From assembly GCA_005790545.1 (NCBI GenBank), contig SXUL01000106.1, forward strand, positions 13,975 to 77,974: a stretch of DNA of 64,000 bases, given 5' to 3'. Both the position numbers and the translations under genes were made by a program. Source of the DNA: Planctomycetia bacterium (lineage in GTDB: Bacteria > Planctomycetota > GCA-002687715). Below the pieces are notes generated by a model. It made no database searches, was not told the origin of the DNA, and saw only the letters and a list, made by a program, of their open reading frames with translations. This document shows positions 28,481 to 57,951 of the stretch, piece after piece (positions within the stretch are counted from its first letter, which is position 1; each line of letters starts with the position of its first letter).

Positions 28481-31420
28481 ATGCGGCCTCGTTTGATACA
28501 GATCATCCCCCTCTTCGCGCTGTCACTTGTCCTTGCAGCTCAGCGCGTGCTCCCTGACGGCCAGACGACGGCGCGCATCCTCCTGCCCGCGGAGGGGTTC
28601 CGCGTAGAGGTGGCCGCAGAAGGATTCGGATCGCTTATCCTCGTCGCCACAGCGCGCGACGGCGCTGTCGTCGTTTCGTCCATCGAAAAGGGGTTGCTCC
28701 AACTCGTGGATGCGAATGCGGATGGCTGCTTCGAAGCCGCTGAGAAGTTCTGCCCCGATCTCACGGGCTGCCAAGGACTGCACTTCCTCGCTGATGGCAC
28801 GGCCTTCGCCATGGCGCGTTCCGACGCAGGCACGGGCGTGCACCGCCTTGCTCCGGGCCCACTGCCGCGGAAGGCGGAACTGCTCTTGCCGCTCGCGGGC
28901 GAAATGGGCGAGCACGGGCCGCACGCCATCCTCGGCGCGCCAGATGGTCGCTTGCTGTTGGTGCTGGGCAATCATGTGCAGCCACTGCATCCGGTCGCCG
29001 CAACAAGCCCCTTCGACACCGTCTACGAAGGCCATCCCCTGCCTCGCATCGAAGACCCGAACGGCCATGCCGTGGGCATCCGCGCACCCGGAGGAAGCCT
29101 TCTGCTCTTCGATCCCGCGACGCGAGTTCTCGAACGCTTCGCCGCGGGTTTCCGCAACGCCTACGACGCGACGTACGACGACGCTGGCGCGCTCTTCACT
29201 TTCGACTCCGACATGGAGTGGGACATCGGCATGCCATGGCACCGTCAGGTGCGCCTTGTGCATGCCGTGCCAGGCGGCGACTACGGCTGGCGCGCGGCGA
29301 CAGCCAAGTCCCCCGCGCATCATGCGGACACGCTGCCGCCCATGGCTGATGCGGGACGCGGTTCACCAACCGGCGTGCTGTGGTGCGATGCGAAGCGCTT
29401 CGGCAATAAGTTCCGCCGCACCATTCTCGCAGCGGACTGGTCGCAAGGACGCATCCTCGCTTTCACGCCGCAGCCATCCGCCTCGACTTGGACAGCGACT
29501 TCCGCAGTGCTCCTGTCCGGGCGCCCCTTGCCTGTGACGGATCTCGCGTTCGACAAGGAAGAACGCCTGCTCGTGAGCGTAGGCGGACGCGGACTCGCTG
29601 GCGCTCTGCTGCGCATGGAAGCGCTGGAGCCCGGCCCATCACCAGCTACTGCGCGTGCACGAGAGCTGCCCCTCTTCGACGGCAACACTGCCTTCGCCGC
29701 TCTGGTGGCGGAACTCGCCAGCCCCGATCGCACGCGGCGCTTTCTCGCGGCGCGTGCATTGGGCCGACGCCCCGCACAGGCTCTTGCGGCGGTCGCGCAC
29801 AGCCATCCCCTGCCCGCCGTGCGTGCGGAGGCACTGCTCGCCCTCGCACGAAAACACCTCGCGGCTGCGGATGTGAAGGGGTTGGCGCTGCTGGATGCCT
29901 GCCTCGAGGTTCTCGTGGGGACGCACCCCGTTGAAGTGCGCCTCGTAGCCGCGCGCGCGCTGCAACTGGCTCTCTGTTGCGCACGACCGGAAACCCTCGC
30001 GGCAGAACCGCGACCGGAACCGCGCGTGGACGTCGGCCAGAAGCTTGCAGCCTTGTTGCCCACAGGCTCGGCCGCACTCGACCGGGATCTCGTGCTCTCG
30101 CTCGCCCACTGCGGCGGAGCAGCGGCTCAGAAGAAACTCCTCGCACTCTTCGAGGCTGCTGCAGATCCCGAAGATGCGCTCCATCTCCTGTTGGCGCTCT
30201 CGAATCTCTCGACGCCGCTCGACGCCGCAAAGCTCCCTTCCTTGCTGCAGCGTCTCAGGGTCCTGAAGTTGCGCCCGGGCGGCCACAGCTACGGCGGTTT
30301 TCTCGATGCGATGCTGCGTCGCTTGATGGTCCGCGTTCCCGAGAGTGAGAAGGCCGCGCTCGTCGCACTGGCAGCACCACCAGCACAGCGTGGCGTGGAG
30401 GGCGGCGGCTGGAAGCGCGAACGCGCACGTGTGCGCGATTATCTGTTGCAATCCCTCGCTGCTCCGGACAAGGATCTCGCCGAAGGTGCACGCGTGTTCC
30501 AACGCCAGTGCGCCGCGTGTCACCAACGCGCAGGGCTCGGCCATGCGGGCGGCCCCGATCTGGCGAGCGTCGAAGCGCGGCTGGGTCTCGACGACCTTCT
30601 CGTCGCCATCATGGAGCCTTCACGGCATGTCTCCGATCAGTACCGGAGTCACCAGATCTTCACGCACGATCAGCAACTGATCAGCGGGCTGGTCACGCGC
30701 GATGACGGCACGACAGTCTCCGTCCTGGACCGCGAAGGCGTGACCCACGCAATCCCGGTCGCCAACATCGAAGAGCGTCGGCTCTCGCCACTCTCCGCCA
30801 TGCCCGATGGCCTGCTCGATCCGCTCACACTCCTTGAGGTGCGTGATCTCGCAGCGTTCCTCCTCGCAACGAACCCGCAGCCCTCAGCACCAGCCGTCCC
30901 AAGCCCATGGCAACCGCTCCTCGCGCACGGACTCGAGGACTGCTCGGGACGCAAGGACCTCTGGACCTTCGCAGCCGGAGAACTCCGCGGCAGCGCCAAG
31001 GACCTGGAGCAGAACGTCTTTCTCGTTCTGCCCGGCCAGTGGCGCGATTTCTCCCTGGAATGCGAGGTGCTGCTTCCCTCCGGCAACAGCGGCGTGCAGT
31101 TTCATTCGAATGTCGATGCCCGCGGCACTGTGACGGGATTGCAAGCCGACCTTGGTGACGTCTGGTGGGGATCGCTGTATGACGAAGGCGGTCGGGGCGT
31201 CCTCGCCAAAGCCGACGGCCTCATGATTGGTCCGAGTCTTGACCGTGGGGGTTGGAATCACCTGCAGGTCAGCGCACGCGGAGCGGAAATCCGGATTCGC
31301 CTGAATGGGCTGGAAACCGTGGCGCTACGCGATGAGAGCCCGGGTGACCACCTCGCTTTGCAATTGCACAAGGGCGCGCCCATGACGGCGACCTTCCGCC
31401 AGATGCGCATACGGCCTTGA
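28481..31420 (+). CDS. PVC-type giant secreted protein: dehydrogenase-like beta-propeller + HEAT repeats + cytochrome c (CxxCH) heme-binding domain + DUF1080 jelly-roll
   Basis: Signal peptide MRPRLIQIIPLFALSLVLAAQ. Single CAACH with GGPDL..V downstream, matching the Pirellula/Verrucomicrobium-type heme-binding domain. Ends ...FRQMRIRP, typical of the DUF1080 (3-keto-disaccharide hydrolase-like) fold. Confidence 0.75.
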   Translation: MRPRLIQIIPLFALSLVLAAQRVLPDGQTTARILLPAEGFRVEVAAEGFGSLILVATARDGAVVVSSIEKGLLQLVDANADGCFEAAEKFCPDLTGCQGLHFLADGTAFAMARSDAGTGVHRLAPGPLPRKAELLLPLAGEMGEHGPHAILGAPDGRLLLVLGNHVQPLHPVAATSPFDTVYEGHPLPRIEDPNGHAVGIRAPGGSLLLFDPATRVLERFAAGFRNAYDATYDDAGALFTFDSDMEWDIGMPWHRQVRLVHAVPGGDYGWRAATAKSPAHHADTLPPMADAGRGSPTGVLWCDAKRFGNKFRRTILAADWSQGRILAFTPQPSASTWTATSAVLLSGRPLPVTDLAFDKEERLLVSVGGRGLAGALLRMEALEPGPSPATARARELPLFDGNTAFAALVAELASPDRTRRFLAARALGRRPAQALAAVAHSHPLPAVRAEALLALARKHLAAADVKGLALLDACLEVLVGTHPVEVRLVAARALQLALCCARPETLAAEPRPEPRVDVGQKLAALLPTGSAALDRDLVLSLAHCGGAAAQKKLLALFEAAADPEDALHLLLALSNLSTPLDAAKLPSLLQRLRVLKLRPGGHSYGGFLDAMLRRLMVRVPESEKAALVALAAPPAQRGVEGGGWKRERARVRDYLLQSLAAPDKDLAEGARVFQRQCAACHQRAGLGHAGGPDLASVEARLGLDDLLVAIMEPSRHVSDQYRSHQIFTHDQQLISGLVTRDDGTTVSVLDREGVTHAIPVANIEERRLSPLSAMPDGLLDPLTLLEVRDLAAFLLATNPQPSAPAVPSPWQPLLAHGLEDCSGRKDLWTFAAGELRGSAKDLEQNVFLVLPGQWRDFSLECEVLLPSGNSGVQFHSNVDARGTVTGLQADLGDVWWGSLYDEGGRGVLAKADGLMIGPSLDRGGWNHLQVSARGAEIRIRLNGLETVALRDESPGDHLALQLHKGAPMTATFRQMRIRP

Positions 31421-31456: not shown

Positions 31457-32794
31457 ATGTCCGCCACCAAGCCGGCCTTCGACCACGGTAGTTTCTGGGA
31501 TGTCTACAGCCAGCGCTGGGAAGTGCATGGCGACGGCGATGGCGTGCGTCACGATGGCGTGCTCGGTGTGGAGTGGACACCCTCCGCGCGCACGCAGTGG
31601 GTGTTCGATCGCTTTGCGAAGCCGTACCTGAAACCGGGCGCGCGCGTGCTCGAGATCGGACCCGGCGGCGGCAAGTTCAGTCGCATGTTCGAGGACGCGG
31701 GCGTGGACCTCACGCTCTGCGACATCAGCCCGAAGATGCTCGAGCGCGCAAGCAGCGCCTGTCGTCGCGCACCAAAGACAGTGCTCCTCGACGGTCGCGG
31801 CCTGCAGCCCTTCGCAGATGGTCACTTCGATCTCGTGTTCAGCTTCGACGTGTTCATCCACATCGAAGCCGAGGAGTTCTTCCGCTACCTCGCCGAAGCG
31901 AACCGCGTCCTCGGTCCCGACGGAGTGTTCAGCGTTCACACCAGCACGTTCGAATCGCAATACGGCATGCTGGCCTTCCTGCGCCAGATGCGTGATCACC
32001 AGCAAGACATCGGCACGCGCTACGGCGGACGCATGTATCCCCTCACGGGGCACGTGCTCGCGCGCTTCGCCGAACACAACGGCTTCGAGGTCACGGACCG
32101 CAGCGAATCCTGGGAAGACCGGGATCTCGTGCAGGCCTTGACGAAGCGCACTCATGCCTGGCCCTGGATCTTCATCACCCGGCAGGATCTGCTGGGTACG
32201 GTGGAGATCAGCGAGAAGAAGGGCGGCACCGGCCCGCGTCCCGTGTACAGCATCGCCCTCCGCGCAGAGGGCCACGAAGCGCTGATGGAGATCGGTGCCC
32301 CGGACGACCCGGTCCTGAAGCGCCGCGCGATCGCGCGCCTGCCGGAGCATCCCGCGCTGCTCCCTCCCACGGGCACCATCGCGGCTTCGGGTCTCTTCGC
32401 CGTTCTCTACCCTCAAATCCGCGGCGTGGCGCTGCGGCGTCTCGCCCACGACCCAGCGTTCACGGAAACGACCCGCGAGACCTCCGAGTATGTGAGGCAT
32501 CTCGTCACGCTGGTCGACGGCATGCAAGCCGCCCACAAGGCGGGACTCGCCCACGGCGAGCTTTCGAGCGAGACAATGTACGCGGACGACCTCACACGTT
32601 ACATGCGCATCGCCGGCTTCCACGATCCAGGTGCGGCCGTGCTGGCGGACATGCAGGAAGCCGACCGACGCGCCATGGCCTCGGCTCTACGAGCTCTGCC
32701 TCTGCCGCCGTGGGCACTGCGCCGGGTGCACGACGCCGCGAAGGCCATCGAGGCAGACACCTTCACAGCGCGCGATTTTCTCGGCGAGGCCTGA
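31457..32794 (+). CDS. fusion protein: N-terminal class I SAM methyltransferase domain + C-terminal protein-kinase-like (possibly pseudokinase) domain
   Basis: VLEIGPGGGKFS glycine motif and DLVFSFDVFIH in the N-terminus. C-terminal segment has a catalytic-loop-like LAHGELSSETM where kinases have HRD/HGD. Confidence 0.55.
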   Translation: MSATKPAFDHGSFWDVYSQRWEVHGDGDGVRHDGVLGVEWTPSARTQWVFDRFAKPYLKPGARVLEIGPGGGKFSRMFEDAGVDLTLCDISPKMLERASSACRRAPKTVLLDGRGLQPFADGHFDLVFSFDVFIHIEAEEFFRYLAEANRVLGPDGVFSVHTSTFESQYGMLAFLRQMRDHQQDIGTRYGGRMYPLTGHVLARFAEHNGFEVTDRSESWEDRDLVQALTKRTHAWPWIFITRQDLLGTVEISEKKGGTGPRPVYSIALRAEGHEALMEIGAPDDPVLKRRAIARLPEHPALLPPTGTIAASGLFAVLYPQIRGVALRRLAHDPAFTETTRETSEYVRHLVTLVDGMQAAHKAGLAHGELSSETMYADDLTRYMRIAGFHDPGAAVLADMQEADRRAMASALRALPLPPWALRRVHDAAKAIEADTFTARDFLGEA

Positions 32795-32892: not shown

Positions 32893-33522
32893 ATGCAGCA
32901 GCATGATGAACCCACTGAGCGGGTAAGCCGACGCGGATTTCTGCGCGGTGCCGGAGCGAGTCTCGCCGCGGGCGGCGTGGTCGGTGCGATCCAGAGCGAC
33001 AAGGCCGGAACTGCGACAGTCGAACCCGCGCTTCAGAACGCAGCCGATGTGGTGGCCTTGAGCTTCGTACTCAACGGCAAGCCCGTGGCCGTGAAGGTGC
33101 GCACAGGCTTCACGCTGCTTGAGACACTTCGCGATCACCTCGATCACACCGGAGCCAAGCTTGTCTGCGACTACGGCGCCTGCGGAGCCTGCACCGTACT
33201 TCTCGATGGCGTAGCCGTGAACTCCTGCCTTGTACTCGCGGTGGAATGTCAGGGCCGCAAGGTCGAGACCATCGAAGGTCTCGCAGTGGACGGCAAGCTG
33301 CACCCGGTGCAAGAAGCCTTCATCGCCGAAGACGCCAGGCAATGCGGCTTCTGCACTCCCGGCATGATCATGTCCTGCAAGTCACTCCTTGATCGCAAGG
33401 CCGCGCCCACGCATCAGGAAACGGCAGAGGCCCTCGCGGGCAACATCTGCCGCTGCGGCACGTACTTCAACATCCAGCGCGCAGTGGATCGCGCCGCCAA
33501 GGCGAAAGCAGGAGGGCGCTGA
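32893..33522 (+). CDS. xanthine dehydrogenase family [2Fe-2S] small subunit (PaoA/CoxS-like) with Tat signal
   Basis: Tat motif [17 protein letters not shown]. Ferredoxin-type 2Fe-2S ligands CDYGACGAC, and second cluster CGFCTPG...CRCGTY. Confidence 0.85.
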
Positions 33523-33523
33523 G

Positions 33524-35746
33524 ATGGCGACAGAAGACAAGAAGGTGAAGCTCGTGCTCGGCTTCGCAGGAGCGCGGGAGGAAGTCGAGATCACCATCCC
33601 GGATGAAGAACCGGTGCCGTGGGATCTCACCACGCAGTTCAGTGTTGTCGGAGGCAAGCATCCGCGCTCGGATGCACAGGCGAAGGTCACGGGGCGCGCG
33701 AAATACACGCACGACATCAACCTGCCCGGCATGCTCTTCGGCGGCTTCGCCCGCTCGCCCCACGCGGCCGCGGAAATCGTCGCCATCGACACCAGCGCGG
33801 CGGAGAAGATCGACGGCGTCAAGGCTGTGATCCCCATGCAACAGGAGCGCGTGCGCTATGCGGGCCAGCCCGTGGCGGCTCTCGCTGCAACCACGCGCCA
33901 GGCTCTCGCCGCGGGCATCGCCGCCGTGAAGGTGGAATGGAAGCCGCTCCCTCACGCCGCACGCATCGAGGATGCCATGCGTGAAGGCGCACCGGTGGTG
34001 CACAAGAACCAGCAGAGCAACGTGACGGGCTCGGGGCGCGCGCGGAACGACGAACGCGTGGTCGCCGAACTCGGCAGCAGCCACAAGGTCGTGAAGGCGA
34101 CAGCGCGCACGCAAGTGCAGACGCACAGCTGCCTCGAAACGCACGGCACCGTGGCCCAGTGGAAGGGCGACGACCTCACCATCTGGACCAGCACTCAAGC
34201 GACGTTCGGCGTACGCTCACAAGTGGCCGATGCGCTGCGCATCGATGAATCCAAGGTGACCGTGCTTTGCGACTTCATGGGTGGCGGCTTCGGATCGAAG
34301 TTCGGCGCGGGCTACTTCACCGCCATCGCAGCGCGCCTCGCGCAGATGGCCGGCGCGCCCGTGAAAATCATGTTTGATCGCCGCGAAGAGCACACCGACA
34401 CAGGCAATCGCCCGGACTCCATCCAGGAGATGGAACTCGGAGTGAGCGCCGATGGAAAGCTCGGCCCGTACAGCGTGAAACTCACGGGCACACCGGGCAT
34501 CGGCCGCGGTGCGGGTGCTGCGAATCCGATGATCTACGACTTCCCGCGCGAACTGCGCGCGGTGAGCCAGACGGAAGTTGCGACCAACGCAGGCCAGCAG
34601 GCTGCCATGCGTGCCCCGGGACATCCGCAGGGGTCATTCGCTCTCGAAACCATTCTTGATCTCGCGGCGGAAGCCATCGGCATGGACCCCCTCGAGTTCC
34701 GCATCAAGAACGATTCCAACCCGGTGCGCCTGGCGCAGTACGAGGAAGGCGCACGACGCATTGGCTGGAAGAACCGGCGCAAGAATGGCAGCGCCACCGG
34801 GCGCTTGCGACGCGGCCTCGGTGTGGCCTCCGGCACGTGGGGCGGCCTTGGTGGCCCCTCGGCAGAAGTGGATTGCCGCATCTTCAAGGATGGTTCGGTG
34901 CAGGTCCGGAACGGTTCGCAGGACATCGGCACCGGCACGAAGACGGTCATGGCCGTGGTCGCCGCCGAAGAACTCGGGCTTCCCCTCGAGAAGGTGCGCC
35001 CCTTCATGGGCGACACCAACGATCCCGTCGGGCCCGCCAGCGGCGGCAGCACCACGGCTCCGAGCATCGCGCCCGCGGCGCGGCAGGCGGCGTATCTCGC
35101 GGGTCGGGAACTGAAAGCCCTCGTCGCAAAGCACCTCGGCGTGGATGCCGCCAAGCTGCTCATGAAGAACGGACGTGTGAGCACGGCGGAAGGCAAGGGC
35201 CTCTCCTTCGAAGACGCTTGCCGACTCATCAGCACAGGCGAGATCCGCGCGCGCGGCAAGCGGCGTTCGAACTTCAAGACCTTCCGCGGCGGCGTCGCCG
35301 GATGTCAATTCGCCGAGGTCGAAGTGGACTGCGACTACGGCCTCGTGCGCGTGGTGCGCATCATCGCCTTGCAGGACGCGGGCATCATCGTGAATCGCCT
35401 GCAGGCGGAGAGCCAGGTGAATGGCGGCGTGATCCAGGGCCTCGCCTACGCGCTGCATGAAGAGCGTGTCATGGACCGCCAACTCGGCCATCAGATGAAC
35501 GCCAACTTCGAGATGTACAAGATCCCCGGCATGAAGGACATGCCCGAGATCGAGTGCGTGCTCTACGACGTCGCCAATGGCGGCAACAACACCTCCGTGT
35601 GCGGCATCGGCGAACCCACGTGCATCCCCACGGCTTCCGCCATCGCGGGCGCCATCCACAACGCGCTCGGGGTGCGCGTGCTCTCGCTGCCGATGACTCC
35701 CGACAAGGTGCTCGCGGCCCTCGCGACCAAAGGAGCCGGCAAGTGA
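33524..35746 (+). CDS. xanthine dehydrogenase family molybdopterin-binding large subunit (PaoC/CoxL-like)
   Basis: 740 aa with aldehyde oxidase/xanthine DH a/b-hammerhead and Moco-binding blocks (GGGFGSK, AMRAPG...). ATG 1 nt after the small-subunit stop. Confidence 0.85.
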   Translation: MATEDKKVKLVLGFAGAREEVEITIPDEEPVPWDLTTQFSVVGGKHPRSDAQAKVTGRAKYTHDINLPGMLFGGFARSPHAAAEIVAIDTSAAEKIDGVKAVIPMQQERVRYAGQPVAALAATTRQALAAGIAAVKVEWKPLPHAARIEDAMREGAPVVHKNQQSNVTGSGRARNDERVVAELGSSHKVVKATARTQVQTHSCLETHGTVAQWKGDDLTIWTSTQATFGVRSQVADALRIDESKVTVLCDFMGGGFGSKFGAGYFTAIAARLAQMAGAPVKIMFDRREEHTDTGNRPDSIQEMELGVSADGKLGPYSVKLTGTPGIGRGAGAANPMIYDFPRELRAVSQTEVATNAGQQAAMRAPGHPQGSFALETILDLAAEAIGMDPLEFRIKNDSNPVRLAQYEEGARRIGWKNRRKNGSATGRLRRGLGVASGTWGGLGGPSAEVDCRIFKDGSVQVRNGSQDIGTGTKTVMAVVAAEELGLPLEKVRPFMGDTNDPVGPASGGSTTAPSIAPAARQAAYLAGRELKALVAKHLGVDAAKLLMKNGRVSTAEGKGLSFEDACRLISTGEIRARGKRRSNFKTFRGGVAGCQFAEVEVDCDYGLVRVVRIIALQDAGIIVNRLQAESQVNGGVIQGLAYALHEERVMDRQLGHQMNANFEMYKIPGMKDMPEIECVLYDVANGGNNTSVCGIGEPTCIPTASAIAGAIHNALGVRVLSLPMTPDKVLAALATKGAGK

Positions 35747-36732
35747 AGAACTTTGACTGGATCACACCGGCGACGGCCAAGGAAGCCGTGGAGGCGTGCA
35801 CGGCTGGACGCACATTCATGGGCGGCGGCACCGATCTCGTAACGCTCATGAAGGCTGGATTGGTCGAGCCCGCAGGACTCGTCAGTCTCTCGCGCGTGAC
35901 AGGCCTTGATGCCATCGCGGAGGATGGTGAAGGGCTGATGCTCGGCGCGCGTGTCACCCTTGCCGCGCTCGCCGAAAACACCGCCGTCGCGCGACGGGCG
36001 CCCGCTGTGGCAGATTCCGCCCGCAACACCGCCACGCCACTCGTGCGCAATCGCGCCACCGTGGGCGGCAATCTCTGTCAGCGCCCGCGCTGCTGGTACT
36101 TCCGCCATCCGGATTACAAGTGTTCCAAGAAGGGCGGCGACACTTGCTACGCCATCGAGGGCGAGAACAAGTACCACGCCATCTTCGAGAACACGACGTG
36201 CAACATCGTGCACCCGAGCAATCTCGGCCCGGCCTTCATGGCCCACGATGCGGAGCTCGTGATCCTCGGCCCGAAGGGCGAACGCAAGCTGTCGATCCAC
36301 GAGTTCTGGGTGCGCCCGGAAGAGGACATGAAGACGGAAATCGCGCTCGATGCCGGAGAGCTCATCACGCGCGTAGACCTGAAACCCATGCCCGCGCGCA
36401 CAGGCTCGGCCTTCGAAGAGGTGAACGAGAAACAGTCCTTCGACTGGGGGCTCGTTGCTGCCGCCGTGCGGCTCACGCTCGATGGCGACAAGGCCGCTGA
36501 TGTGCGCATCATTCTCGGAGCCGTCGCACCGGTTCCGCTCCGGCATGCAGAAGCGGAGAAGGCCCTCACAGGCCGCGTGCCCGATGAGAAGGCCGCACTC
36601 GCCGCGGCGGAGAAGGCCGTCGAAGGGGCGACACCGCTCCGCGACAACCACTACAAGATCGCGATGCTCAAGGCCTGCGTGAAGAATGCCATCCTGATGG
36701 CGGCCGCCCGCGCGCGGAAGGCTGGAGGCTGA
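35743..36732 (+). CDS. xanthine dehydrogenase family FAD-binding subunit (PaoB/CoxM-like)
   Basis: GTG start overlapping the preceding stop (GTGA). FAD-binding PCMH-type N-terminus (GGGTDL) and CO-DH-flavoprotein-like C-terminus. Confidence 0.8.
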   Translation: MKNFDWITPATAKEAVEACTAGRTFMGGGTDLVTLMKAGLVEPAGLVSLSRVTGLDAIAEDGEGLMLGARVTLAALAENTAVARRAPAVADSARNTATPLVRNRATVGGNLCQRPRCWYFRHPDYKCSKKGGDTCYAIEGENKYHAIFENTTCNIVHPSNLGPAFMAHDAELVILGPKGERKLSIHEFWVRPEEDMKTEIALDAGELITRVDLKPMPARTGSAFEEVNEKQSFDWGLVAAAVRLTLDGDKAADVRIILGAVAPVPLRHAEAEKALTGRVPDEKAALAAAEKAVEGATPLRDNHYKIAMLKACVKNAILMAAARARKAGG

Positions 36733-36734
36733 CC

Positions 36735-36989
36735 ATGGAACGCACCCATCTCGACCGCTCAAGGCTGCCGCTCGACGTCTGCGAGCATCTCTGCACCAAG
36801 ACCATGTACACCGGCTCTGAAACGCGTTCGTTGCTTGAGGAGTATCCGGGCGCAGGTGTGAGCACCGCAGGTTTCTGGTGCGTATTCACGCAGATGCCTC
36901 TCGGTGAAGACGGCGACCCGGTGGGTCCGGAGAGTTGCCGTCCGGGACGCCGCTGCTGCAAGCCACGGCTCGTGCCGCCGGAAGTCTGA
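36735..36989 (+). CDS. possible small Cys-rich protein (84 aa, 7 Cys)
   Basis: ATG 3 nt after the FAD-subunit stop. CEHLC...FWC...CRPGRRCC. Fills the gap between the oxidoreductase and the CxxCH protein. No homology recognised, so it may be non-coding. Confidence 0.2.
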   Translation: MERTHLDRSRLPLDVCEHLCTKTMYTGSETRSLLEEYPGAGVSTAGFWCVFTQMPLGEDGDPVGPESCRPGRRCCKPRLVPPEV

Positions 36990-36993
36990 CGCC

Positions 36994-37740
36994 ATGAGAA
37001 TTGCGCTGCTGTCTCTCTTCTGCGTCGCGACACTCGCGTCCTTCCTCGCCGCTCAGAAACCAAGTGCCTCCGAAGAGCTGTGGCGCCGTTGCAGTGGCTG
37101 CCACGGCATGCCGGATGAGCGCGTTCCCGGCGACAGCCTCTGGCTCGGACGCATTGCGGTGACGCGCTGCATCCAACCTCCCGCGCCGGAGAACAACGGA
37201 GAACGGCAGAGCCTCGTGGCATGGCTCAAGGCCGCTGCGCGTGAACGACCTGCGTTGGTGAGTGAACCTGCAAGCCAAGAGGCTCCCGGCGGTCGCGTGG
37301 AGGTTGCCTTCGCGGATGGCTCGCTGCTTTTCCTCCCGGAATCGAGCGGCCAAGCGGACACACGCACACCACAGCGCCTCGTCTTCGAACGCAGAAAGCC
37401 CGGCGCGCGCGCGCTTCCCGCCGGTCGTTGGCGCCTCGCGGGCTACCGGCTGCAGCGCCTCGACAAGGAGCAGACTCTCTGGCAGCTCTGGGGCGCCGGC
37501 AAAGCGGAGCGTGTGCTCGACATCAAGGCGGGTGAAGTCACCAAGCTCGCTCTCGATGAACGTGCCGGCGTGCGCGTGCAGTGGAGCATCAAGGGCGAGA
37601 AATTCCAGGGCGGACTCGCCGTGACCGGAGATGCAGGGCTCGGTGCCACGCTCATGGCTGGCAAGGAGCGCGTGCCTGCACGCATGGTGCTCCGCGCAGG
37701 AGCCACAACCCTCGATTCAGTTCCTCTTGACTGGGGTTGA
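36994..37740 (+). CDS. secreted protein with a single CxxCH heme-binding motif (CSGCHG)
   Basis: Signal peptide MRIALLSLFCVATLASFLAAQ. CxxCH 12 residues after the predicted cleavage region. Immediately downstream of the Tat-exported oxidoreductase. Confidence 0.5.
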   Translation: MRIALLSLFCVATLASFLAAQKPSASEELWRRCSGCHGMPDERVPGDSLWLGRIAVTRCIQPPAPENNGERQSLVAWLKAAARERPALVSEPASQEAPGGRVEVAFADGSLLFLPESSGQADTRTPQRLVFERRKPGARALPAGRWRLAGYRLQRLDKEQTLWQLWGAGKAERVLDIKAGEVTKLALDERAGVRVQWSIKGEKFQGGLAVTGDAGLGATLMAGKERVPARMVLRAGATTLDSVPLDWG

Positions 37741-37905
37741 GGCGGAGTCGCCGGCGCTTCGTTGAAGCGCCCCACCTCAGAACGCACCATGGAAGTGATC
37801 TTCAGCACGGGCCCCTTCGAGCGCACGGGCGAACTCAGCGCCGAAGTGCGGATCGCGCGCTGACGAAGCTGGCGGCAAACCGCCGCGGTGCGGGAGAGAA
37901 ATTCC

Positions 37906-39333
37906 ATGCAAGCCATTCCCCTCGTGATCGGTGGCCGGCGTGTGGAGACGGACAGGGTCCTCGATGTGCACGCCAAGGCGACAGGCGATGTGCTCGGACG
38001 TGTGTGCCTCGCCGAATCGGCGCACATTGATCAGGCCATCGACGCTGCGGTCCGCGCTGCGCCTGCCATGGCGGCCCTCGCTCTCTGCGATCGCGAACGC
38101 ATCCTCGAAGGCATCTGCACGCAACTCCGTGAGCGCGAGGACGAGTTCGCCCGTCTGCTGTGCCGCGAAGTCGGCAAGCCCATCCGCGATGCGCGCGGTG
38201 AAGTGTCGCGCATGATCGACACCTTCCACGCCGCCGCAGGCGAGGCCGTACGCCCTCACGGAGAAGTGCTGCCCATGGACGCGCTCCCGCGCGGACGCGG
38301 ACTCATCGGCTCCGTGCGCAGGGTGCCCATCGGCCCCGCCGGTTTCATCACACCCTTCAATTTCCCGCTCAATCTCGCAGCGCACAAGATCGCACCCGCC
38401 ATTGCCGCAGGCTGCCCCTTCGTGCTCAAGCCGGCGAGTTTGACGCCACTCACGACACACCTGCTCGCCGATGTGCTCGCGCGTGCGGGCCTGCCGCAGG
38501 GCGCGTTCTCCACCGTGCCCTCCACGCGCGCCGCAGCCGACCTGCTCGTCACCGACGAGCGCCTGAAGCTTCTCTCCTTCACGGGCTCCCCCGCCGTGGG
38601 CTGGGACATGAAGGCCCGCGCAGGGCGGACGAAGGTGGTCCTCGAACTCGGCGGCAACGCGGCCTGCATCGTGGAACCTGATTGGGACGCCGCTGATGCG
38701 TGCGCACGGCTTGTGCTCGGTGCTTTCGCAGGCTCGGGACAGAGTTGCATCAAGACCCAGCGTGTCCTTGTGCATGCGAGCCGCTACGACGACATGCGCG
38801 AGCGCTTCGTCAACGCAACCCTTGCGCTCCGCATGGGCGATCCTGAGGACGAAAGCACGCTCATCGGTCCGCTCATCACGGAGAAGGATGCCGAGCGACT
38901 CGAAGCCTGGATCGTGGCCGCAGTGGCGGGCGGCGCGAGGCTCCTCTGTGGCGGTCGCCGCAAGGGCGCATTCCTCGAGCCCACCATCCTCGAGAATGTG
39001 AGTGCATCCGCGGACATCCGCTGCGAGGAGGCCTTCGGCCCCGTGGTTGTGCTGGACCGCTATGAACGCTTCAGTGAGGCGCTGGCTTGCGTCAACGCCT
39101 CACGCTTCGGATTGCAGGCAGGACTCTTCACTCGCGACTGGGTGCGCGTGGAGGAAGCGTTCCGTGCGCTTGAGGTGGGCGGCCTCATCGTCGGCGACGT
39201 TCCCACGTGGCGGGTGGACCACATGCCTTACGGCGGCGTCAAGGACTCCGGTCTCGGGCGCGAAGGTGTGCGCTGGGCCATGGAGGAAATGACGGAACCA
39301 CGTCTCTTGGTCCAGCGGCAGCCACCCGCATGA
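37906..39333 (+). CDS. NAD(P)-dependent aldehyde dehydrogenase family protein
   Basis: ALDH catalytic motifs LELGGNA (Glu) and GSGQSCIKTQR (Cys) present. 475 aa. Confidence 0.85.
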   Translation: MQAIPLVIGGRRVETDRVLDVHAKATGDVLGRVCLAESAHIDQAIDAAVRAAPAMAALALCDRERILEGICTQLREREDEFARLLCREVGKPIRDARGEVSRMIDTFHAAAGEAVRPHGEVLPMDALPRGRGLIGSVRRVPIGPAGFITPFNFPLNLAAHKIAPAIAAGCPFVLKPASLTPLTTHLLADVLARAGLPQGAFSTVPSTRAAADLLVTDERLKLLSFTGSPAVGWDMKARAGRTKVVLELGGNAACIVEPDWDAADACARLVLGAFAGSGQSCIKTQRVLVHASRYDDMRERFVNATLALRMGDPEDESTLIGPLITEKDAERLEAWIVAAVAGGARLLCGGRRKGAFLEPTILENVSASADIRCEEAFGPVVVLDRYERFSEALACVNASRFGLQAGLFTRDWVRVEEAFRALEVGGLIVGDVPTWRVDHMPYGGVKDSGLGREGVRWAMEEMTEPRLLVQRQPPA

Positions 39334-39454
39334 TCCGAAGCAGGTCGGCTGGCACCAGCAACCCTGCAATCCGCGCAATATCTGGCTCGTGAAAGATCCT
39401 CACTCTGCTGAACCTTTCGCACCCGAGATCCGCTCTATACTCACAGGCCCCGCC

Positions 39455-40057
39455 ATGAACCCAGCACGCACAGCCCTGATCTTCGTCGGATTCCAGAACG
39501 ACTACTTCGCCGCGAACGGCATTCTCAACGCGGCCCTCGAGGACAAGCAGGGGCGTGACCAGACGCTCCGCAACGCGTTGCTGCTCTTGCGCCGCCTCGG
39601 GCCCACCAAGGCGAGCCTCATCGGCACACCAATCCTGTTCACAGAGGGCTACGCGGAATTGCAGAACCCGGTCGGCATTCTGAAGGCCATCAAGGACACC
39701 GGCGCCTTCCGACGTGGCTCGCCCGGCGGCGACACCATTCCCGAGTTCGCCGCATTCGAAGGCCGCATGGATGTGGTGCCCGGCAAGCGCGGGCTCAATG
39801 CGTTCTCGAACACCAATCTCGAGGCCCTCCTGCGCGAACGAAAGATCGAGGATGTGATCGTCCTTGGTGTGGTCACATCGCTCTGCATCGACTCCACGGC
39901 GCGGCAGGCCATGGAACACGGCATCCGCACCACCATCCTGTCGGATGCGACCTCGGGCCGGACCGCCTTCGAGCAAGAGTTCTATTGCGACAAGGTGTTC
40001 CCGCTCTATGCCCAGATGAAGACCACCGAGGAACTCCTTGCCGCACTCGGAGCCTGA
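39455..40057 (+). CDS. isochorismatase-family cysteine hydrolase
   Basis: N-terminal ALIFVGFQNDYF block characteristic of the isochorismatase fold. Start set at the MNPARTAL Met. Confidence 0.7.
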   Translation: MNPARTALIFVGFQNDYFAANGILNAALEDKQGRDQTLRNALLLLRRLGPTKASLIGTPILFTEGYAELQNPVGILKAIKDTGAFRRGSPGGDTIPEFAAFEGRMDVVPGKRGLNAFSNTNLEALLRERKIEDVIVLGVVTSLCIDSTARQAMEHGIRTTILSDATSGRTAFEQEFYCDKVFPLYAQMKTTEELLAALGA

Positions 40058-41573
40058 GCCCTCTCCAGCAAAGCCAGAGCAGTCGCCGACACCGAGCGAG
40101 CTGACCAGCCAGATTCACCAGCGGCTGCTCGAGGACCTGCGCGCATCCGAGTTGCGCTATCGCACGCTCGTGGAACACGTGCCTGCGGTGGTGTTCCGCC
40201 TCGATGCCTCGCAGCACATCGAGTTCGCGAGCCAGGCCCTGACAGACGTCCTCGGCCGCAATCCCGGAGATGCGACCGGGCATTCTTTCAGTGACTACCT
40301 GCACAAGGATGAACGGAAGACTCTCGAGTTTTTCAGGCACGTCAACGACATCGAAGACTCGTTCCTGTTCGCACATGCCGATGGCCGCCCGGTCAGCCTG
40401 AGAGTCACGGCCCATCGCGACGAATACGAAGGCTGGACCGGCGTGCTCACTGACCAGACGCGCATCCACGCGCTGGAAGGCCAGCTCCGTCAGGCTCAGA
40501 AGATGGAAGCCATCGGAAGTCTCGCCGGTGGCGTCGCCCACGATTTCAACAACATCCTCATGGGCATCCTCGGACTCGCGGATTCCCTGGTGCAAGGATT
40601 GCCAGAAGGCGACCCCCGACGCGGCGACGCCTCGGACGTGATGAAGCTCGCCGAGCGCGGCAGCGCCATCACCCACAAACTGCTGCAGATCTCGCGGAAG
40701 AAAGAGGCCACGCCAGAATGCGTGGATCTCTGCCAGCTCTCGCTCGGCATGCGCGACGTCCTGCGTCGGCTCTTGCCGGAGAACATCGAATTGCTTGTGC
40801 AGACACCGCCACACCTCGTGCCTGTGCGCGCGGACCGCACCGGCCTGGAGCAGGTGCTGCTCAATCTCGTGGTGAACGCGCGCGACGCCATGCCCTGGGG
40901 CGGCCGTGTCGTTGTCGACGTGGACACTGCGCCCGAAGGCCCCGTGCCGGTGGCTTCGGTCTGCGTGACCGACTCGGGTACAGGCATGCCGCCCGAAGTG
41001 ATCGAGCGCATCTTTGAACCCTTCTTCAGTACCAAGGGCAAGGGCGGCACGGGCCTCGGTCTCTCGGTCGTGTACGGCATCGTGCAGCAGGCGGGCGGCA
41101 CCATCTCCGTGGAGTCCATCGAATGCCAAGGCACCACCTTCCGCATCCTGCTGCCGCTGGTCGCCATGGCCCCCCCCGCGTCGGCACCACTGTCGGGTGC
41201 CTCTCTGCGCGGCGCACCGCGCACCATCCTGCTCGTGGATGACGACACCACGCTGCTCCGCATCATGCGCGCGGGCTTGGAACGTGCAGGCCATGTGATT
41301 TTCGAGAGTACCTGCGTCCGTGGGGCCCTCGATCAGATCGATGCGCAGCCCGGGATTGACCTCATCATCACGGACCTCGGCATCGGGAATGCGTCCGGCA
41401 ATGAACTCGTGAATGCGTTGCGCGCGCGACACCTCACCACGCCAGTCCTCATCGTCACTGGCGAGGGCGATGACGGAACCCCGCTTCAGGCGCCGGTGCA
41501 TGCGGTGCTTGCAAAACCCTTGCGCATCCCCGAACTCGTTGCAGCCGTGGCCGCGACGCCGCGAAAAACCTGA
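40038..41573 (+). CDS. hybrid sensor histidine kinase/response regulator (PAS - HisKA - HATPase - REC)
   Basis: H-box LAGGVAHDFNNIL, N/G boxes (LVVNARDAM, DSGTGMPPEV, GGTGLGLS) and C-terminal receiver ILLVDDD...D. Confidence 0.8.
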   Translation: MPHSEPEPSPAKPEQSPTPSELTSQIHQRLLEDLRASELRYRTLVEHVPAVVFRLDASQHIEFASQALTDVLGRNPGDATGHSFSDYLHKDERKTLEFFRHVNDIEDSFLFAHADGRPVSLRVTAHRDEYEGWTGVLTDQTRIHALEGQLRQAQKMEAIGSLAGGVAHDFNNILMGILGLADSLVQGLPEGDPRRGDASDVMKLAERGSAITHKLLQISRKKEATPECVDLCQLSLGMRDVLRRLLPENIELLVQTPPHLVPVRADRTGLEQVLLNLVVNARDAMPWGGRVVVDVDTAPEGPVPVASVCVTDSGTGMPPEVIERIFEPFFSTKGKGGTGLGLSVVYGIVQQAGGTISVESIECQGTTFRILLPLVAMAPPASAPLSGASLRGAPRTILLVDDDTTLLRIMRAGLERAGHVIFESTCVRGALDQIDAQPGIDLIITDLGIGNASGNELVNALRARHLTTPVLIVTGEGDDGTPLQAPVHAVLAKPLRIPELVAAVAATPRKT

Positions 41574-50233: not shown

Positions 50234-52174
50234 ATGAACGCACGCCTCACTCTTCTCGTTGCAGCCCTCGCCTTTCTCGTCTGCGCGCCGCTGGTCGCTC
50301 AACGGCGCGACCAAACCGGCGAAGGCGATGCGAACTGGTCCACGCTCTTCCAGGCCCCGGCCATGCGCACCCCGGATCGCATGCACACGGCGAGTGGACG
50401 GCCCGGCCCGGACTATTGGCAGCAAGTAGCGGACTACAAGATCAAGGCGCGCCTCGATCCGGTGGCCAACAAACTCAGCGCGGAACTCACCCTCACCTAC
50501 ACCAACAACTCCCCCGAAGAGCTGTCCTTCCTCTGGTTCCATCTCGAACAGAACATCTTCAAGCAGGACAGCGCGGCTAGGCAACTTGCACTGTCCGGGG
50601 GTGCCAACGGCGAGCGCATCGAGTCGGAAACCAACGGCGTCGAACTCGCCCATGTGAAATGTCGCGGTGAAGACATCGCCTTCACGGTGTACGACACGCT
50701 CATGCGCGTCGAACTCGCGAAGCCCGTGCGCGCGGATGGCGGCGAGGTCGAGATCGACATTCAGTGGTCCATGAGCCTGCCGGAGAAAGCGGCCCTCCGC
50801 ATGGGCCGCACGGAAACCAGCGACGGCCCCATCTTCGCCCTCGCTCAGTGGTTCCCTGCCGTCGCGAAGTTCGATGATGTCCATGGCTGGAACACCCTGC
50901 CCTATCTAGGTTCCGGCGAGTTCTACACCGACTTCGGTGACTATGAGGTGGAGATCACGGTGCCGGCGAATCACATCGTGGCCTCGACCGGCACACTCAT
51001 GAACCCACGCAGCGTGCTCACGAACGCCCAGCGCGAGGCCCTCGCGAAGGCTCGTGAATCGCGCGAAACCGTGATCGTGCGCTCGGCGGATGAGGTGGCT
51101 CTCGGCAAGGGGCGCCCCGAGAGCGCCGATCCAATCACCTGGGAGTTCAGCGCCCGCAACGTGCGCACCTTCGCCTTCACTTCATCGCCGTCCTTCGTCT
51201 GGGATGCCTCCACCACGAATGCCGGCGTGCTCTGTCAGTCCTTCTATCCGCGCTCAGCCTTGCCGCTCTGGGAGGAAGGCACGAAGGACCTCCGCGAATC
51301 CATCGAGCACTTCTCGCGCATGTGGTTCCCGTACCCATGGCCGGTTGCGAACAACACCAACGCCTTCGGTGAGGGTGGCGGCGGCATGGAATACCCGATG
51401 ATCATCTTCAACGGGCGCTGCGATTCGAGCTACGACTTGTTCGCGCTGGTCGCCCACGAGATCGGGCACAACTGGTTCCCCATGGTGGTGAACACCGATG
51501 AACGCCGCCATGTGTGGATGGACGAGGGCTTCAACACCTTTGTCGATTACTACGCCATCGTGGAGCGCTTCGGTTCTGGCGGCAGCTGGTTCGATCGCAA
51601 GGACTGGGTCTCCGCGTGGTCGCGCAACACCCACCCCATGTCCACGCCACCCGATCGCATGCCCGCAGGAACCGTTGGTTTCCTCGGCTACGACAAACCA
51701 GCCTGGATGATGCGCACGCTCCGCGAAGATGTTCTCGGTGCCGAGCGCTTCGATCGCGCCTTCCGCGACTACATTGCGGCTTGGGCCATGAGGTCGCCCA
51801 CACCGGATGACTTCATGCGCTGCATGGAGAACGGTGCCGGCATGGATCTCGGCTGGTTCTGGCAGAGCTGGATCTTCGGCGCCGCCAAGCCGGATGTGGC
51901 GCTCGTGAGCCTCAGCATCGACGAAGGAACTGTTGATGCCGAGATCTCCCATCGCACGCGCTTCGTGCATCCAGTGCCTTGGCGCGCCGCATTGAAGGAT
52001 GGTTCCCGCCGCGAAGGTGTGATTCCCGTGGAGGCCTTCGCGACTCGGCGCTTGGTCCGCTTCAGTTGCGAGGTGCCCGCGGGTTCCCTCCTGAACTTCA
52101 CCCTCGACCCCGAGGCCCGCTGGCCCGATATGGACCGCAAGAACAACTCACAGGCACCGCACCCTGCGAAGTAA
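50234..52174 (+). CDS. M1-family zinc metallopeptidase (HExxH-X18-E), secreted
   Basis: Signal peptide MNARLTLLVAALAFLVCAPLVAQ. HEIGHNWF...WMDEGF gives HEXXH then E after 18 residues, the gluzincin M1 signature. Confidence 0.75.
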   Translation: MNARLTLLVAALAFLVCAPLVAQRRDQTGEGDANWSTLFQAPAMRTPDRMHTASGRPGPDYWQQVADYKIKARLDPVANKLSAELTLTYTNNSPEELSFLWFHLEQNIFKQDSAARQLALSGGANGERIESETNGVELAHVKCRGEDIAFTVYDTLMRVELAKPVRADGGEVEIDIQWSMSLPEKAALRMGRTETSDGPIFALAQWFPAVAKFDDVHGWNTLPYLGSGEFYTDFGDYEVEITVPANHIVASTGTLMNPRSVLTNAQREALAKARESRETVIVRSADEVALGKGRPESADPITWEFSARNVRTFAFTSSPSFVWDASTTNAGVLCQSFYPRSALPLWEEGTKDLRESIEHFSRMWFPYPWPVANNTNAFGEGGGGMEYPMIIFNGRCDSSYDLFALVAHEIGHNWFPMVVNTDERRHVWMDEGFNTFVDYYAIVERFGSGGSWFDRKDWVSAWSRNTHPMSTPPDRMPAGTVGFLGYDKPAWMMRTLREDVLGAERFDRAFRDYIAAWAMRSPTPDDFMRCMENGAGMDLGWFWQSWIFGAAKPDVALVSLSIDEGTVDAEISHRTRFVHPVPWRAALKDGSRREGVIPVEAFATRRLVRFSCEVPAGSLLNFTLDPEARWPDMDRKNNSQAPHPAK

Positions 52175-52258
52175 CCGCAGCGCGTCGGGGCATGTCGAAC
52201 TGACGCACCCGACCCTGCATGAAACAGCAGAGTCGTGCGCCTCAGTCGAGGAGACCGT

Positions 52259-53962: not shown

Positions 53963-53972
53963 GTCATGCTCC

Positions 53973-56384: not shown

Positions 56385-56650
56385 GCCAAGGACTAGTGGC
56401 CGTGTTCGTCAACACGCACCGCGCATCGGCCACCGCGCGAGCCGCTTGCAGCTTTGTTTCCGCATCGCACACTGTGTTCCCCTGCCGACACATGGCCTGC
56501 ATAGCGCAACACACACTGCGTCGCCCATTGGCCCGGCTTCGGTCCGCAGAACAGAGGCACCTTGGAGGCATCTTTCGGCGTGCTTTGGCTCTTTGGCGCC
56601 AAGACAGTGCGCCAACGCCAGCGGCTCTGGAGCAGCCGTAATAATCTGGA

Positions 56651-56723
56651 TGGGCGCTGAGGGATTCGAACCCCCGACCCCCTCGGTGTAAGCGAGGTGC
56701 TCTAGCCGCTGAGCCAAGCGCCC
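56651..56723 (-). tRNA. tRNA-Val (anticodon TAC)
   Basis: Minus-strand GGGCGCTTGGCTCAGCGGCTAGAGCACCTCGCTTACACCGAGGGGGTCGGGGGTTCGAATCCCTCAGCGCCCA folds as a cloverleaf. Anticodon loop is CTTACAC. Confidence 0.85.
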
Positions 56724-57057: not shown

Positions 57058-57951
57058 ATGACGGACTTCAACACGCACCCGCTCCACGCGCTCTTCATGA
57101 CCGCGGCTCTGAGAGTTGCCACCACGCTCGGCGTGGTGCTCGCCCTCGGCGGCTTCATCGCCGCTCAAGACCCGCCCTCGGAAGAGACCATGAACTACTT
57201 CAAGGCCAACTGCGCGAGTTGCCACACCATTGGTGGCGGCCGTCTCACTGGTCCTGACCTGAAGGGCGCCGACACTCGCAAGGACCGCGACTGGCTCATC
57301 AGCTTCGTCGCCGATCCGAAGACGATGATCGACTCCGGCGACGCCTACGCCCGCAAACTGGTGGAAGAAGCCCGCGGCGCGCTCATGCCCAATGTCCCCG
57401 GCATGAACAAGACCCTCGCGGCCAAGCTCGTCGATCTCATCAAGGCCGAGTCAGTGCTGGAGAAGTCGCATTTCATGGGTGTGGTGCTTTCGGACCGCCC
57501 ACTCACGGCCGTGGACGTAGCCCAGGGCAAGGCCCTCTTCACCGGCCTCGCACCCTTCAAGGCCGGCGCCCCTGCGTGCAACTCGTGCCACACAGTGCGC
57601 GCTCTCGAGGGCTTCGGCGGCGGCCGCCTCGGACCAGATCTGACCAGCGCCTTCGCGCGTCTCGAAGGCCGCAAGGCCCTCGGTGCATGGCTTTCGGCAC
57701 CGCCCTCCATCGTGATGCAGCCGGTGTTCAAGCAGCACACTCTGGAGAGCGACGAGATTCTCTCGTTGGTGGCGTTCTTGAAGAGCGAAGCGGAAGGCGG
57801 CGATGCGCCCATGGTGGCGGAACCCTCCCTCGACTTCGTGCTGGCAGGGCTCGGCGCGGCAGCGCTGCTCATTGTCTTGATGGACTTCGCCTGGCGTCGC
57901 CGCTACCGCGCCGTGCGCAGGCCCCTCGTTGCGAAGGACTCGAACTCATGA
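57058..57951 (+). CDS. membrane-anchored diheme c-type cytochrome, NarC-like, first gene of the nitrate reductase operon
   Basis: Signal/TM then two CxxCH (CASCH, CNSCH) and a C-terminal TM helix ([18 protein letters not shown]). Stop overlaps the narG ATG (ATGA). Confidence 0.75.

Follow-up and report, generated by a model that had tools for sequence, protein, structure and literature searches.

PaoABC of E. coli (5g5g) carries a twin-arginine translocation (Tat) signal on its subunit with two [2Fe-2S] clusters, a [4Fe-4S] motif in its flavin adenine dinucleotide (FAD) subunit and a catalytic glutamate in its molybdenum cofactor (Moco) subunit, and is encoded in the order paoA (iron-sulfur, FeS)-paoB (FAD)-paoC (Moco)-paoD. 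In 4-hydroxybenzoyl-CoA reductase (4-HBCR; HcrABC, 1rm6), the [4Fe-4S] cluster of HcrB is the contact point for a small FeS partner, a ferredoxin. The aldehyde oxidase of Methylobacillus sp. (5y6q) is a heterotrimer with a Cys-rich insert, and we know of no fourth or fifth gene for it. The four-Cys [4Fe-4S] motif of the FAD subunit is characteristic of PaoABC (bioRxiv 10.64898/2026.07.15.738685), whose physiological electron acceptor is unknown (PMC3958847). For the periplasmic, Tat-exported nicotine dehydrogenase NdhAB of Agrobacterium tumefaciens S33, the acceptor is a pseudoazurin encoded by an adjacent gene (PMC7688666). Here we describe a locus in a 64,000-nucleotide stretch of DNA from a Planctomycetia bacterium (contig SXUL01000106.1 of assembly GCA_005790545.1, forward-strand positions 13,975 to 77,974; hereafter the window, whose own positions are used throughout), which encodes a predicted exported molybdo-flavo-FeS hydroxylase of the PaoABC type, followed by a small Cys-rich protein and a secreted CxxCH protein. 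Sequence comparison identifies the small protein as a hallmark of enzymes of this kind.

The seven open reading frames (ORFs) listed in an earlier note on this DNA are all present, on the + strand. The first three encode the subunits of the enzyme: a 2x[2Fe-2S] (FeS) subunit of 209 aa (32893..33522), a Moco subunit of 740 aa from the xanthine oxidase family (33524..35746) and a FAD subunit of 329 aa (35743..36732). They are followed by the genes for the small protein of 84 aa (36735..36989) and for the CxxCH protein, which starts at 36994. The TGA of the FeS gene ends at 33522 and the ATG of the Moco gene begins at 33524, with 1 nt between them, and the GTG of the FAD gene overlaps the Moco TGA as GTGA (35743-35746), so that our coordinates reproduce both tight junctions of the earlier note. 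The small ORF, preceded by GGAGG, starts 2 nt after the FAD stop, and 4 nt separate its own stop from the start of the CxxCH ORF. A consensus scan found no terminator or promoter between these genes or before the aldehyde dehydrogenase (ALDH) gene that comes next. We estimate at about 0.6 the probability that 32893 to ~37863 forms one translationally coupled five-gene operon for a periplasmic molybdenum hydroxylase.

The Pfam domains of all three subunits exceed their gathering cut-offs (Fer2_2, 4e-30, and Fer2 in the FeS subunit; Ald_Xan_dh_C, MoCoBD_1 and MoCoBD_2 in the Moco subunit; FAD_binding_5 and CO_deh_flav_C in the FAD subunit). The N-terminus of the FeS subunit bears the twin-arginine signal SRRGFLRG and scores 18.2 bits with the NCBIfam model TAT_signal_seq, against a cut-off of 16.7; the motif SRRGFL(R/K)G is kept in all orthologues of the planctomycete clade that is syntenic with the window. 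This subunit is probably the Tat export carrier for the complex. Among solved structures, the best match of the Moco subunit is PaoC (5g5g/5g5h, 7e-77), followed by the alpha subunit of 4-HBCR and the Methylobacillus aldehyde oxidase, with CO dehydrogenases and xanthine dehydrogenases ranking lower. The proposal of the earlier note, a Tat-exported FeS/Moco/FAD enzyme of the PaoABC type, is thus borne out by the signal-sequence score and by PaoC as the nearest solved Moco subunit. The best structural matches of the FAD subunit are 5y6q_B (7e-47), HcrB (1rm6_B) and PaoB, all of which have an extra Cys-rich insert. In the window, this insert reads QRPRC...YKC...DTC...TTC, and in a HMMER alignment the cysteines of PRC, YKC, DTC and TTC fall on C122, C138, C146 and C155 of HcrB, the ligands of its [4Fe-4S] cluster. 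All four are kept across the syntenic clade. The Methylobacillus enzyme is the best solved match for the FAD subunit and is also among the best for the FeS subunit; its Moco subunit matches at ~211 bits.

The active-site residues that the earlier note had pointed to for substrate class are conserved in part. The catalytic Glu is retained, the GIGEP of the window aligning with GVGEL of PaoC (PaoC Glu692, bovine Glu1261), as is the Mo-proximal Gln of PaoC (TSTQ in the window). The single aligned residue that differs between 5g5g (R) and 5g5h (H), which we take to be PaoC Arg440 (R440H variant), is a Trp in the window. None of the three subunits reaches an NCBIfam equivalog cut-off: the scores are 167.8 against 322 for PaoA, 334.6 against 1180 for PaoC, 173 against 991 for CO_dehy_Mo_lg, and 336.6 against 994.6, 182.4 against 404.6 and 156.9 against 257.8 for 4-HBCR alpha, beta and gamma. 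Within NCBIfam the FAD subunit scores best with 4hydrxCoA_B, again below its cut-off, and the identities to E. coli PaoA, PaoB and PaoC are 44, 33 and 32%. We conclude that the window encodes what is, by these scores, a PaoABC-type exported molybdo-flavo-FeS hydroxylase and not an orthologue of PaoABC, 4-HBCR, CoxSML or XdhABC. Its likely place is in a clade that is widespread, so far uncharacterised and sister to PaoABC and 4-HBCR. Unlike the paoABCD operon, the window has the order FeS-Moco-FAD-small-CxxCH, with no PaoD/XdhC gene and with a small Cys-rich ORF that is absent from the E. coli paoABCD region; 4-HBCR, for its part, is a cytoplasmic enzyme that lacks a Tat signal and works in reverse, as a reductase, whereas the window enzyme is Tat-signalled.

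Pfam and NCBIfam contain no match to the small protein, and none of 46 family members matches a Pfam family. An exhaustive profile search of 1.84 billion representatives delineated a family of its own with 339 clusters (E <= 1e-3), to whose profile the window ORF aligns at 4.5e-28. The family follows the consensus C-x-HLRTK-x-MY ... TA-x-(F/Y)WC-x2-T-x4-GPD-x3-V-x-P-x2-C-x2-GR-x-C, in which C49, G57, D59, C68, R72 and C74 are invariant and C16, K22 and W48 nearly so; all four Cys are thus invariant or almost so. With 82-99% identity, it is also the best-conserved gene of the operon. When the family motif was back-translated and used as a DNA pattern, it matched the window once, with 0 matches expected by chance, and matched all 14 syntenic loci. 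The same pattern matched at least 120 JGI metagenome stretches (L040-L159), which served as a sample of the wider family; all counts for wider-family loci given here and below are taken from the matches listed. Indeed, 119 of the 120 translate to true members of the small-protein family. A PaoB-like FAD gene ends directly before the small ORF in 102 of the 104 loci with >=600 nt of upstream sequence, and over ~100 loci the median distance from FAD stop to small ORF start is 4 nt, many of the gene pairs overlapping by 4 nt. The small ORF, to which the earlier note had given a passing mention, is therefore present as described and turns out to be a near-universal partner of the enzyme. The Tat motif SRRxFLK was found in 24/27 FeS subunits from these loci; in the other three the N-terminal signal region is not readable: their matches to the window protein start at residues 49, 56 and 74 of the query, and a contig end cuts two of them.

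Besides its absence from the E. coli pao region, the small ORF is absent from 72,556 plasmids, 623 of which have PaoB-like genes (tblastn with three family members as queries). No fusion of the small domain to a larger protein was seen among the top 150 matches, where P0125 is a repetitive false positive, and a profile search of the PDB with the family gave no true match. In the literature, we found neither a described fourth subunit nor planctomycete Pao-like enzymes. Because of the adjacency to the FAD gene in 102/104 loci, the Tat motifs and the absence from E. coli pao and from plasmids, we conclude that the small protein is the sequence signature of a distinct, widespread, Tat-exported FeS-Moco-FAD clade. 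On the same comparisons, the general partner of the enzyme is the small ORF and not the CxxCH protein. The same FeS-Moco-FAD-small arrangement was observed in metagenome-assembled genomes (MAGs) of Solibacteraceae and Acidobacteriaceae (isolates MFD06714 and MFD09603; L022 2951-3032 and L036 7035-7116), where the reading frame of the small ORF is displaced by 1 nt in comparison with L128 and other related members, possibly because of an indel in the assembly.

The wider family also bears on the case that the earlier note had set against its own proposal, a CO-dehydrogenase clade with an artefactual Tat motif. An aerobic CO dehydrogenase with a chance RR motif was rejected: CoxL structures rank below PaoC, HcrA and 5y6q, the score lies far below the CoxL cut-off, and the Tat motif is conserved both in the syntenic clade and in the wider family.

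What might the small protein do? We favour the reading in which it would be a co-exported fourth subunit acting as the electron exit of the enzyme, because of the analogy with 4-HBCR, on whose [4Fe-4S]/ferredoxin contact this proposed role is modelled; the ferredoxin of 4-HBCR is itself unrelated to the 84-aa family. The distribution of cysteines is of interest here. The stretch QRPRCW(Y/F)(Y/F)R of the FAD-subunit insert is nearly invariant across the wider family, its first Cys being present in 75/75 inserts, partly by construction since the search pattern was Q[RK][PTA]RC. The later cluster cysteines are often lost, leaving 4, 3 or 1 Cys depending on the lineage. The fewer Cys the insert has, the more the small protein tends to carry beyond the four that it always keeps (Spearman rho -0.39 over 75 loci; -0.50 over 24 sequence clusters, p = 0.013). 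This inverse relation would fit a metal centre at or near the interface between the FAD subunit and the small protein, possibly a shared or relocated cluster. Several points weigh against a fourth subunit. The correlation of Cys counts is of modest size and confounded by phylogeny, and the clade of the window itself lies off the trend, with 4 Cys in the FAD insert and 6 in the small protein. The small protein has neither a signal peptide nor a detectable homologue of known function, and its AlphaFold 2 (AF2) model, built on an 8-sequence alignment, is unusable (predicted local distance difference test, pLDDT, 43).

The lack of a signal peptide is also what would be expected if the small protein stayed outside the mature enzyme as a cytoplasmic maturation or Tat-proofreading factor, similar to NapD or FdhE or replacing XdhC/PaoD, and kept hold of the FAD/[4Fe-4S] subunit, or of the signal peptide, pending cofactor loading. 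That Tat substrates have small chaperones encoded in the same operon is a well-established arrangement. Moreover, no XdhC/PaoD-like gene occurs in the 64-kb window and one lies nearby in only 2 of the 120 wider-family loci; chaperones of the XdhC type are reviewed in PMC2997495. We regard such a chaperone as a less probable alternative, though one to be taken seriously. The highest conservation of the operon, four near-invariant Cys and translational coupling to the FAD gene in ~100 loci would better fit a stoichiometric metal-binding subunit, and Tat export by hitchhiking, in the absence of an own signal, is equally required of the Moco and FAD subunits. A metal-binding fourth subunit hence remains the reading that we favour for the small protein.

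By contrast with the small protein, the CxxCH protein encoded by the fifth gene is narrowly distributed. A word-indexed search of 5.8 billion proteins returned 4 relatives and a profile search 7 clusters; one of the sequences is named as from a 'Planctomycetes bacterium' MAG. All loci that encode it (L001-L014) are syntenic over ~20 kb, in the order PEPCK, PVC-type heme protein with DUF1080, methyltransferase, five-gene operon, ALDH, ALGX/MBOAT and GDE-like gene. Because the whole ~20 kb is syntenic in this clade, the linkage of the CxxCH protein to the enzyme provides no independent evidence of a functional tie. Its profile matches 0 of the 120 wider-family loci, and the co-occurrence with PaoABC-like operons proposed in the earlier note as a check is thus not seen in these loci. 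Likewise, among 235 ORFs in the 3 kb that follow the small ORF, just 2 contain CxxCH, both on the opposite strand. The idea of a dedicated CxxCH protein accordingly holds for its translational coupling and for the conservation of its motif (below), but not beyond one planctomycete clade. That its linkage is seen only in this fully syntenic clade, and that it is the least conserved and fastest-evolving gene of the operon (43-80% identity), both argue against a role as the enzyme's electron acceptor. The logic of such a role is that of NdhAB, a xanthine-oxidase-family enzyme with a small secreted redox acceptor encoded alongside, although NdhAB has two subunits and no FAD, and its blue copper partner is unrelated to the small ORF or to the CxxCH protein.

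In the wider family, the gene after the small ORF is most commonly one for a secreted DUF1326 protein (~220 aa; Pfam DUF1326, E 1e-9 to 1e-16), found with the profile in 46 of the 104 loci with downstream sequence (for example L044, L047, L053, L057, L092, L143 and L156). All DUF1326 matches near the small ORF share its strand, and 38 adjoin it directly; the proteins encoded directly after the small ORF share the motif G-x-Y-x-E-x-R and two invariant Cys. DUF1326 is absent from the window, and homology between the CxxCH protein and DUF1326 (PF07040) was rejected, the hhalign probability being 0.9%. A literature search on DUF1326 function yielded nothing relevant. Judged by gene content, the fifth position is a variable slot that often holds a secreted protein, and c-type cytochromes are not the general partner of the enzyme, given the counts for the CxxCH profile (0/120) and for CxxCH in downstream ORFs (2/235).

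The CxxCH gene of the window presents a second feature, an in-frame TGA. As annotated, the ORF ends at this codon (37738..37740) and encodes 248 aa, but bacterial selenoprotein genes are recognized by an in-frame UGA, a stem-loop ~11-12 nt later whose apical loop contains G/U, and coding sequence that stays conserved further downstream (PMC1802603, PMC1794560). The TGA is TGA in 6/6 orthologues, while for the neighbouring genes the stop is sometimes TGA and sometimes TAG. Behind it, in the same frame, come 36-40 conserved codons, which in the window read GGVAGASLKRPTSERTMEVIFSTGPFERTGELSAEVRIAR up to the next stop at 37861-37863. The first 99 nt after the TGA contain zero gaps and no in-frame stop in any of the six orthologues, and the peptide motif GGxAGAS..RP...GPF is kept from the first codon onwards. 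Substitutions in these 99 nt are distributed over the three codon positions as 112/122/219, similar to the 146/112/297 of the 33 codons that immediately precede the TGA. As controls, the regions behind the stops of the methyltransferase, ALDH and PVC heme protein genes gave 100/100/136, 63/71/62 and 106/82/117, with 220-250 gap cells and variable stops, and show no comparable third-position bias. In addition, a 7-bp hairpin (GGCGCUU-CGUUG-AAGCGCC, 37753..37771, + strand), which may be a bacterial selenocysteine insertion sequence (SECIS) element, lies 12 nt 3' of the UGA. It is paired in 42/42 cells, against 33-71% with slid partners, shows one compensatory change, from U-A to C-G in L013, and one G-U wobble, in L009, and keeps GU in its loop. 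Because the TGA is invariant, the extension coding-like and gap-free and the hairpin conserved 12 nt on, we think it likely that the TGA is read as selenocysteine, which would give a protein of 289 aa (36994..37863) with selenocysteine at codon 249 (Sec249). Of the CxxCH ORF delimited by the earlier note (36994-37740), the start would stand and the end would probably move to 37863 by way of the in-frame UGA.

This reading has to be weighed against the possibility that the TGA is a true stop and that the conserved downstream sequence is a separate small ORF or an RNA element controlling the ALDH gene. Gene callers end the ORF at the TGA, and codon 17 of the extension could serve as an internal start, being ATG in the window, L001 and L006 and TTG in L009. 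In L013 and L014 this codon is GTC and TTC; L014 has no in-frame ATG, GTG or TTG from the TGA to codon 17, and in L013 an in-frame GTG does not come until codon 22. Both nonetheless keep the frame and the peptide motif. Together with the gap-free extension and a third-position bias that resembles the upstream coding part and differs from the three control stops, this makes a true stop the less probable explanation. Other observations count against selenocysteine. No homologue with Cys at this position exists among the known members (7 clusters), which all carry TGA, and Rfam gave no SECIS or other match at 37600-37950. The stability of the hairpin is unremarkable (z = -1.29), and its covariation amounts to a single compensatory pair, reached by 86/500 shuffles. 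No tRNA-Sec was found in the window or in the related loci, the stretches that the scan covered. Full selenocysteine machinery is present in some Planctomycetes (PMC4807772), and some accepted selenoprotein families, such as GrdA, also lack Cys forms (PMC1794560). The candidate selenocysteine codon shares with FdhA-type selenoproteins the in-frame UGA and the conserved downstream coding sequence, and the hairpin 12 nt on with GU in its loop is a candidate counterpart of their stem-loop; it differs in that the window protein has no Cys homologue and would represent a new family confined to one planctomycete clade. The extended 289-aa protein matches no known family. To our knowledge, no selenoprotein type described so far combines secretion by the Sec pathway with CxxCH.

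We then considered the CxxCH protein as a heme protein. In the window, the motif CSGCH lies behind a cleavable-looking signal peptide. CxxCH follows the signal peptide in 6/6 orthologues (CSGCH, CSACH, CNECH, CEGCH, CQSCH), down to 41% identity; the L001 gene call is too short, and its real start restores both the signal peptide and CNECH. Across the six orthologues, W30, C33, C36, H37, P40, D41, C59, I60, Q61 and P62 are invariant. The AF2 model (pLDDT 65.7; predicted template modelling score, pTM, 0.67) consists of a signal helix, a helix whose end at CSGCH parallels class I cytochromes c, two further helices and a beta-sandwich. We consider the protein a candidate c-type heme protein, with a predicted heme site at CxxCH. 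The same conserved residues could be read otherwise, with CxxC, Cys59 and Sec249 forming the active site of a thiol/selenol redox or binding protein that was recruited in this lineage and receives no electrons from the molybdoenzyme. We judge this unlikely: the His directly after CxxC is invariant, the motif closes the first helix behind a Sec-type signal, as it does in class I cytochromes c, and a chance CxxCH that survives to 41% identity in 248 aa is improbable. The heme assignment, which we prefer, is nonetheless weakened by the absence of a conserved Met or second His as distal ligand in the six orthologues, the only other invariant ligand candidates being Cys59 and the putative Sec249, and by the absence of any match to a cytochrome c family in Pfam or NCBIfam even at E = 1. 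The sole PDB match, a cytochrome c2, is insignificant (E = 0.92), and fold searches with the model returned generic sandwiches only.

A genuine cytochrome c domain is encoded two genes upstream of the operon. The ORF at 28481-31420 (+) specifies a PVC-type heme-binding protein of 979 aa, in which a TIGR02603 CxxCH domain (1.5e-27) and a weak match to Piru_Ver_Nterm are joined by a DUF1080/3-keto-disaccharide hydrolase domain at the C-terminus. Its gene keeps this place throughout the syntenic clade, and the protein is another conceivable acceptor. Homology of the CxxCH protein to this PVC-type cytochrome domain was rejected, none being seen. Between this gene and the operon there is always a class I methyltransferase of 445 aa (31457-32794, +), which has a ~250-aa C-terminal extension with a weak MAD6 kinase-like match at residues 289-389.

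From these elements, a mechanism can be proposed. The holoenzyme, probably with the small protein as a fourth, metal-binding subunit, would form in the cytoplasm and leave it through Tat, guided by the signal of the FeS subunit. An aldehyde or heteroaromatic substrate would be hydroxylated at Mo, and the electrons would pass through the [2Fe-2S] clusters to FAD and [4Fe-4S], then to the Cys4 site of the small protein and on to the fifth protein, here a c-type heme protein with selenocysteine at codon 249, which would either feed them into the respiratory chain or reduce an oxidant in the periplasm. The scheme in full, a four-subunit periplasmic molybdenum hydroxylase whose 84-aa Cys4 exit delivers to a secreted heme protein with selenocysteine, the selenol, with or without Cys59, acting as heme ligand or redox centre, is speculative and we give it a low probability. 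If true, the fifth protein would be a natural heme-plus-selenocysteine protein and the founder of a new selenoprotein family.

The genes that follow are a NAD(P)-type ALDH of 475 aa (37906..39333, +; PF00171, 1e-139) and an isochorismatase-family hydrolase of 200 aa (39455..40057, +; PF00857, 1e-32), their starts being those of the gene callers; both identities agree with the earlier note. The ALDH reaches no NCBIfam equivalog. If the fifth ORF extends to 37863, the gap to the ALDH gene would probably be 42 nt and not 165. These 42 nt (37864-37905) contain a short GC hairpin, GGCGGCAAACCGCC, and a Shine-Dalgarno-like site, GGGAGAG, with no T-rich terminator by consensus scan. The earlier note had joined both genes to the periplasmic enzyme in a two-compartment module, in which the enzyme, a cytoplasmic ALDH and the isochorismatase-like hydrolase would act on one family of aldehyde or heteroaromatic substrates. 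All these genes lie on the same strand, the ALDH start follows the extended fifth ORF closely, and the ALDH gene is found in every clade locus, including L001, L007, L009 and L014. But adjacency weighs little where the whole ~20 kb is syntenic, the ALDH gene is a conserved neighbour in this clade only, and no homologue of the window ALDH or isochorismatase genes occurs in the 120 wider-family loci. The isochorismatase gene, moreover, is missing from half of the clade together with the kinase gene behind it: in L009-L012 and L014 the ALDH gene is directly followed by ALGX. Since ALDH is linked only in the syntenic clade and isochorismatase is absent from half of it, the module finds no comparative support and we consider it very unlikely; the two genes appear to be neighbours and not components of the enzyme module, the ALDH's membership being doubtful. 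The isochorismatase gene and that for a PAS-HisKA-HATPase-receiver hybrid kinase (39455-41573, +) overlap by 20 nt, occur together only in the window, L001, L007 and L008, and look like a two-gene insertion or deletion.

Elsewhere in the window, a second, unrelated molybdoenzyme is encoded at 57576-61586 (+), a molybdopterin oxidoreductase of the DMSO-reductase family with 1336 aa (Molybdopterin, 1e-59; Molydop_binding). The G+C content of the window is ~65%, and falls to 0.59-0.60, against ~0.65 elsewhere, at 52000-56400, which may be an acquired segment. Its minus strand encodes a FG-GAP repeat protein of 581 aa and an ORF of 803 aa that has no Pfam match, and a tRNA-Val gene adjoins it (56651-56723).

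Taken together, these comparisons remove as unsupported the pathway model that linked ALDH and isochorismatase to the enzyme, and place the locus in a predicted sister clade that comprises at least 339 sequence clusters, mostly from metagenome contigs, with Solibacteraceae, Acidobacteriaceae and planctomycete MAGs. The in-frame UGA makes the fifth protein a candidate for a new selenoprotein family that gene callers cut short, with an unusual mix of Sec-pathway signal, CxxCH and selenocysteine. DUF1326 gains its first consistent genomic context. The small protein, encoded beside such enzymes in many bacteria of soil, represents a gene family that is missing from annotation pipelines. Since the question of which acceptor the periplasmic PaoABC-type enzymes use has stood open since their discovery (PMC3958847), the small Cys4 protein offers a testable candidate for the electron exit of these enzymes, or may prove to be a new maturation factor for them.

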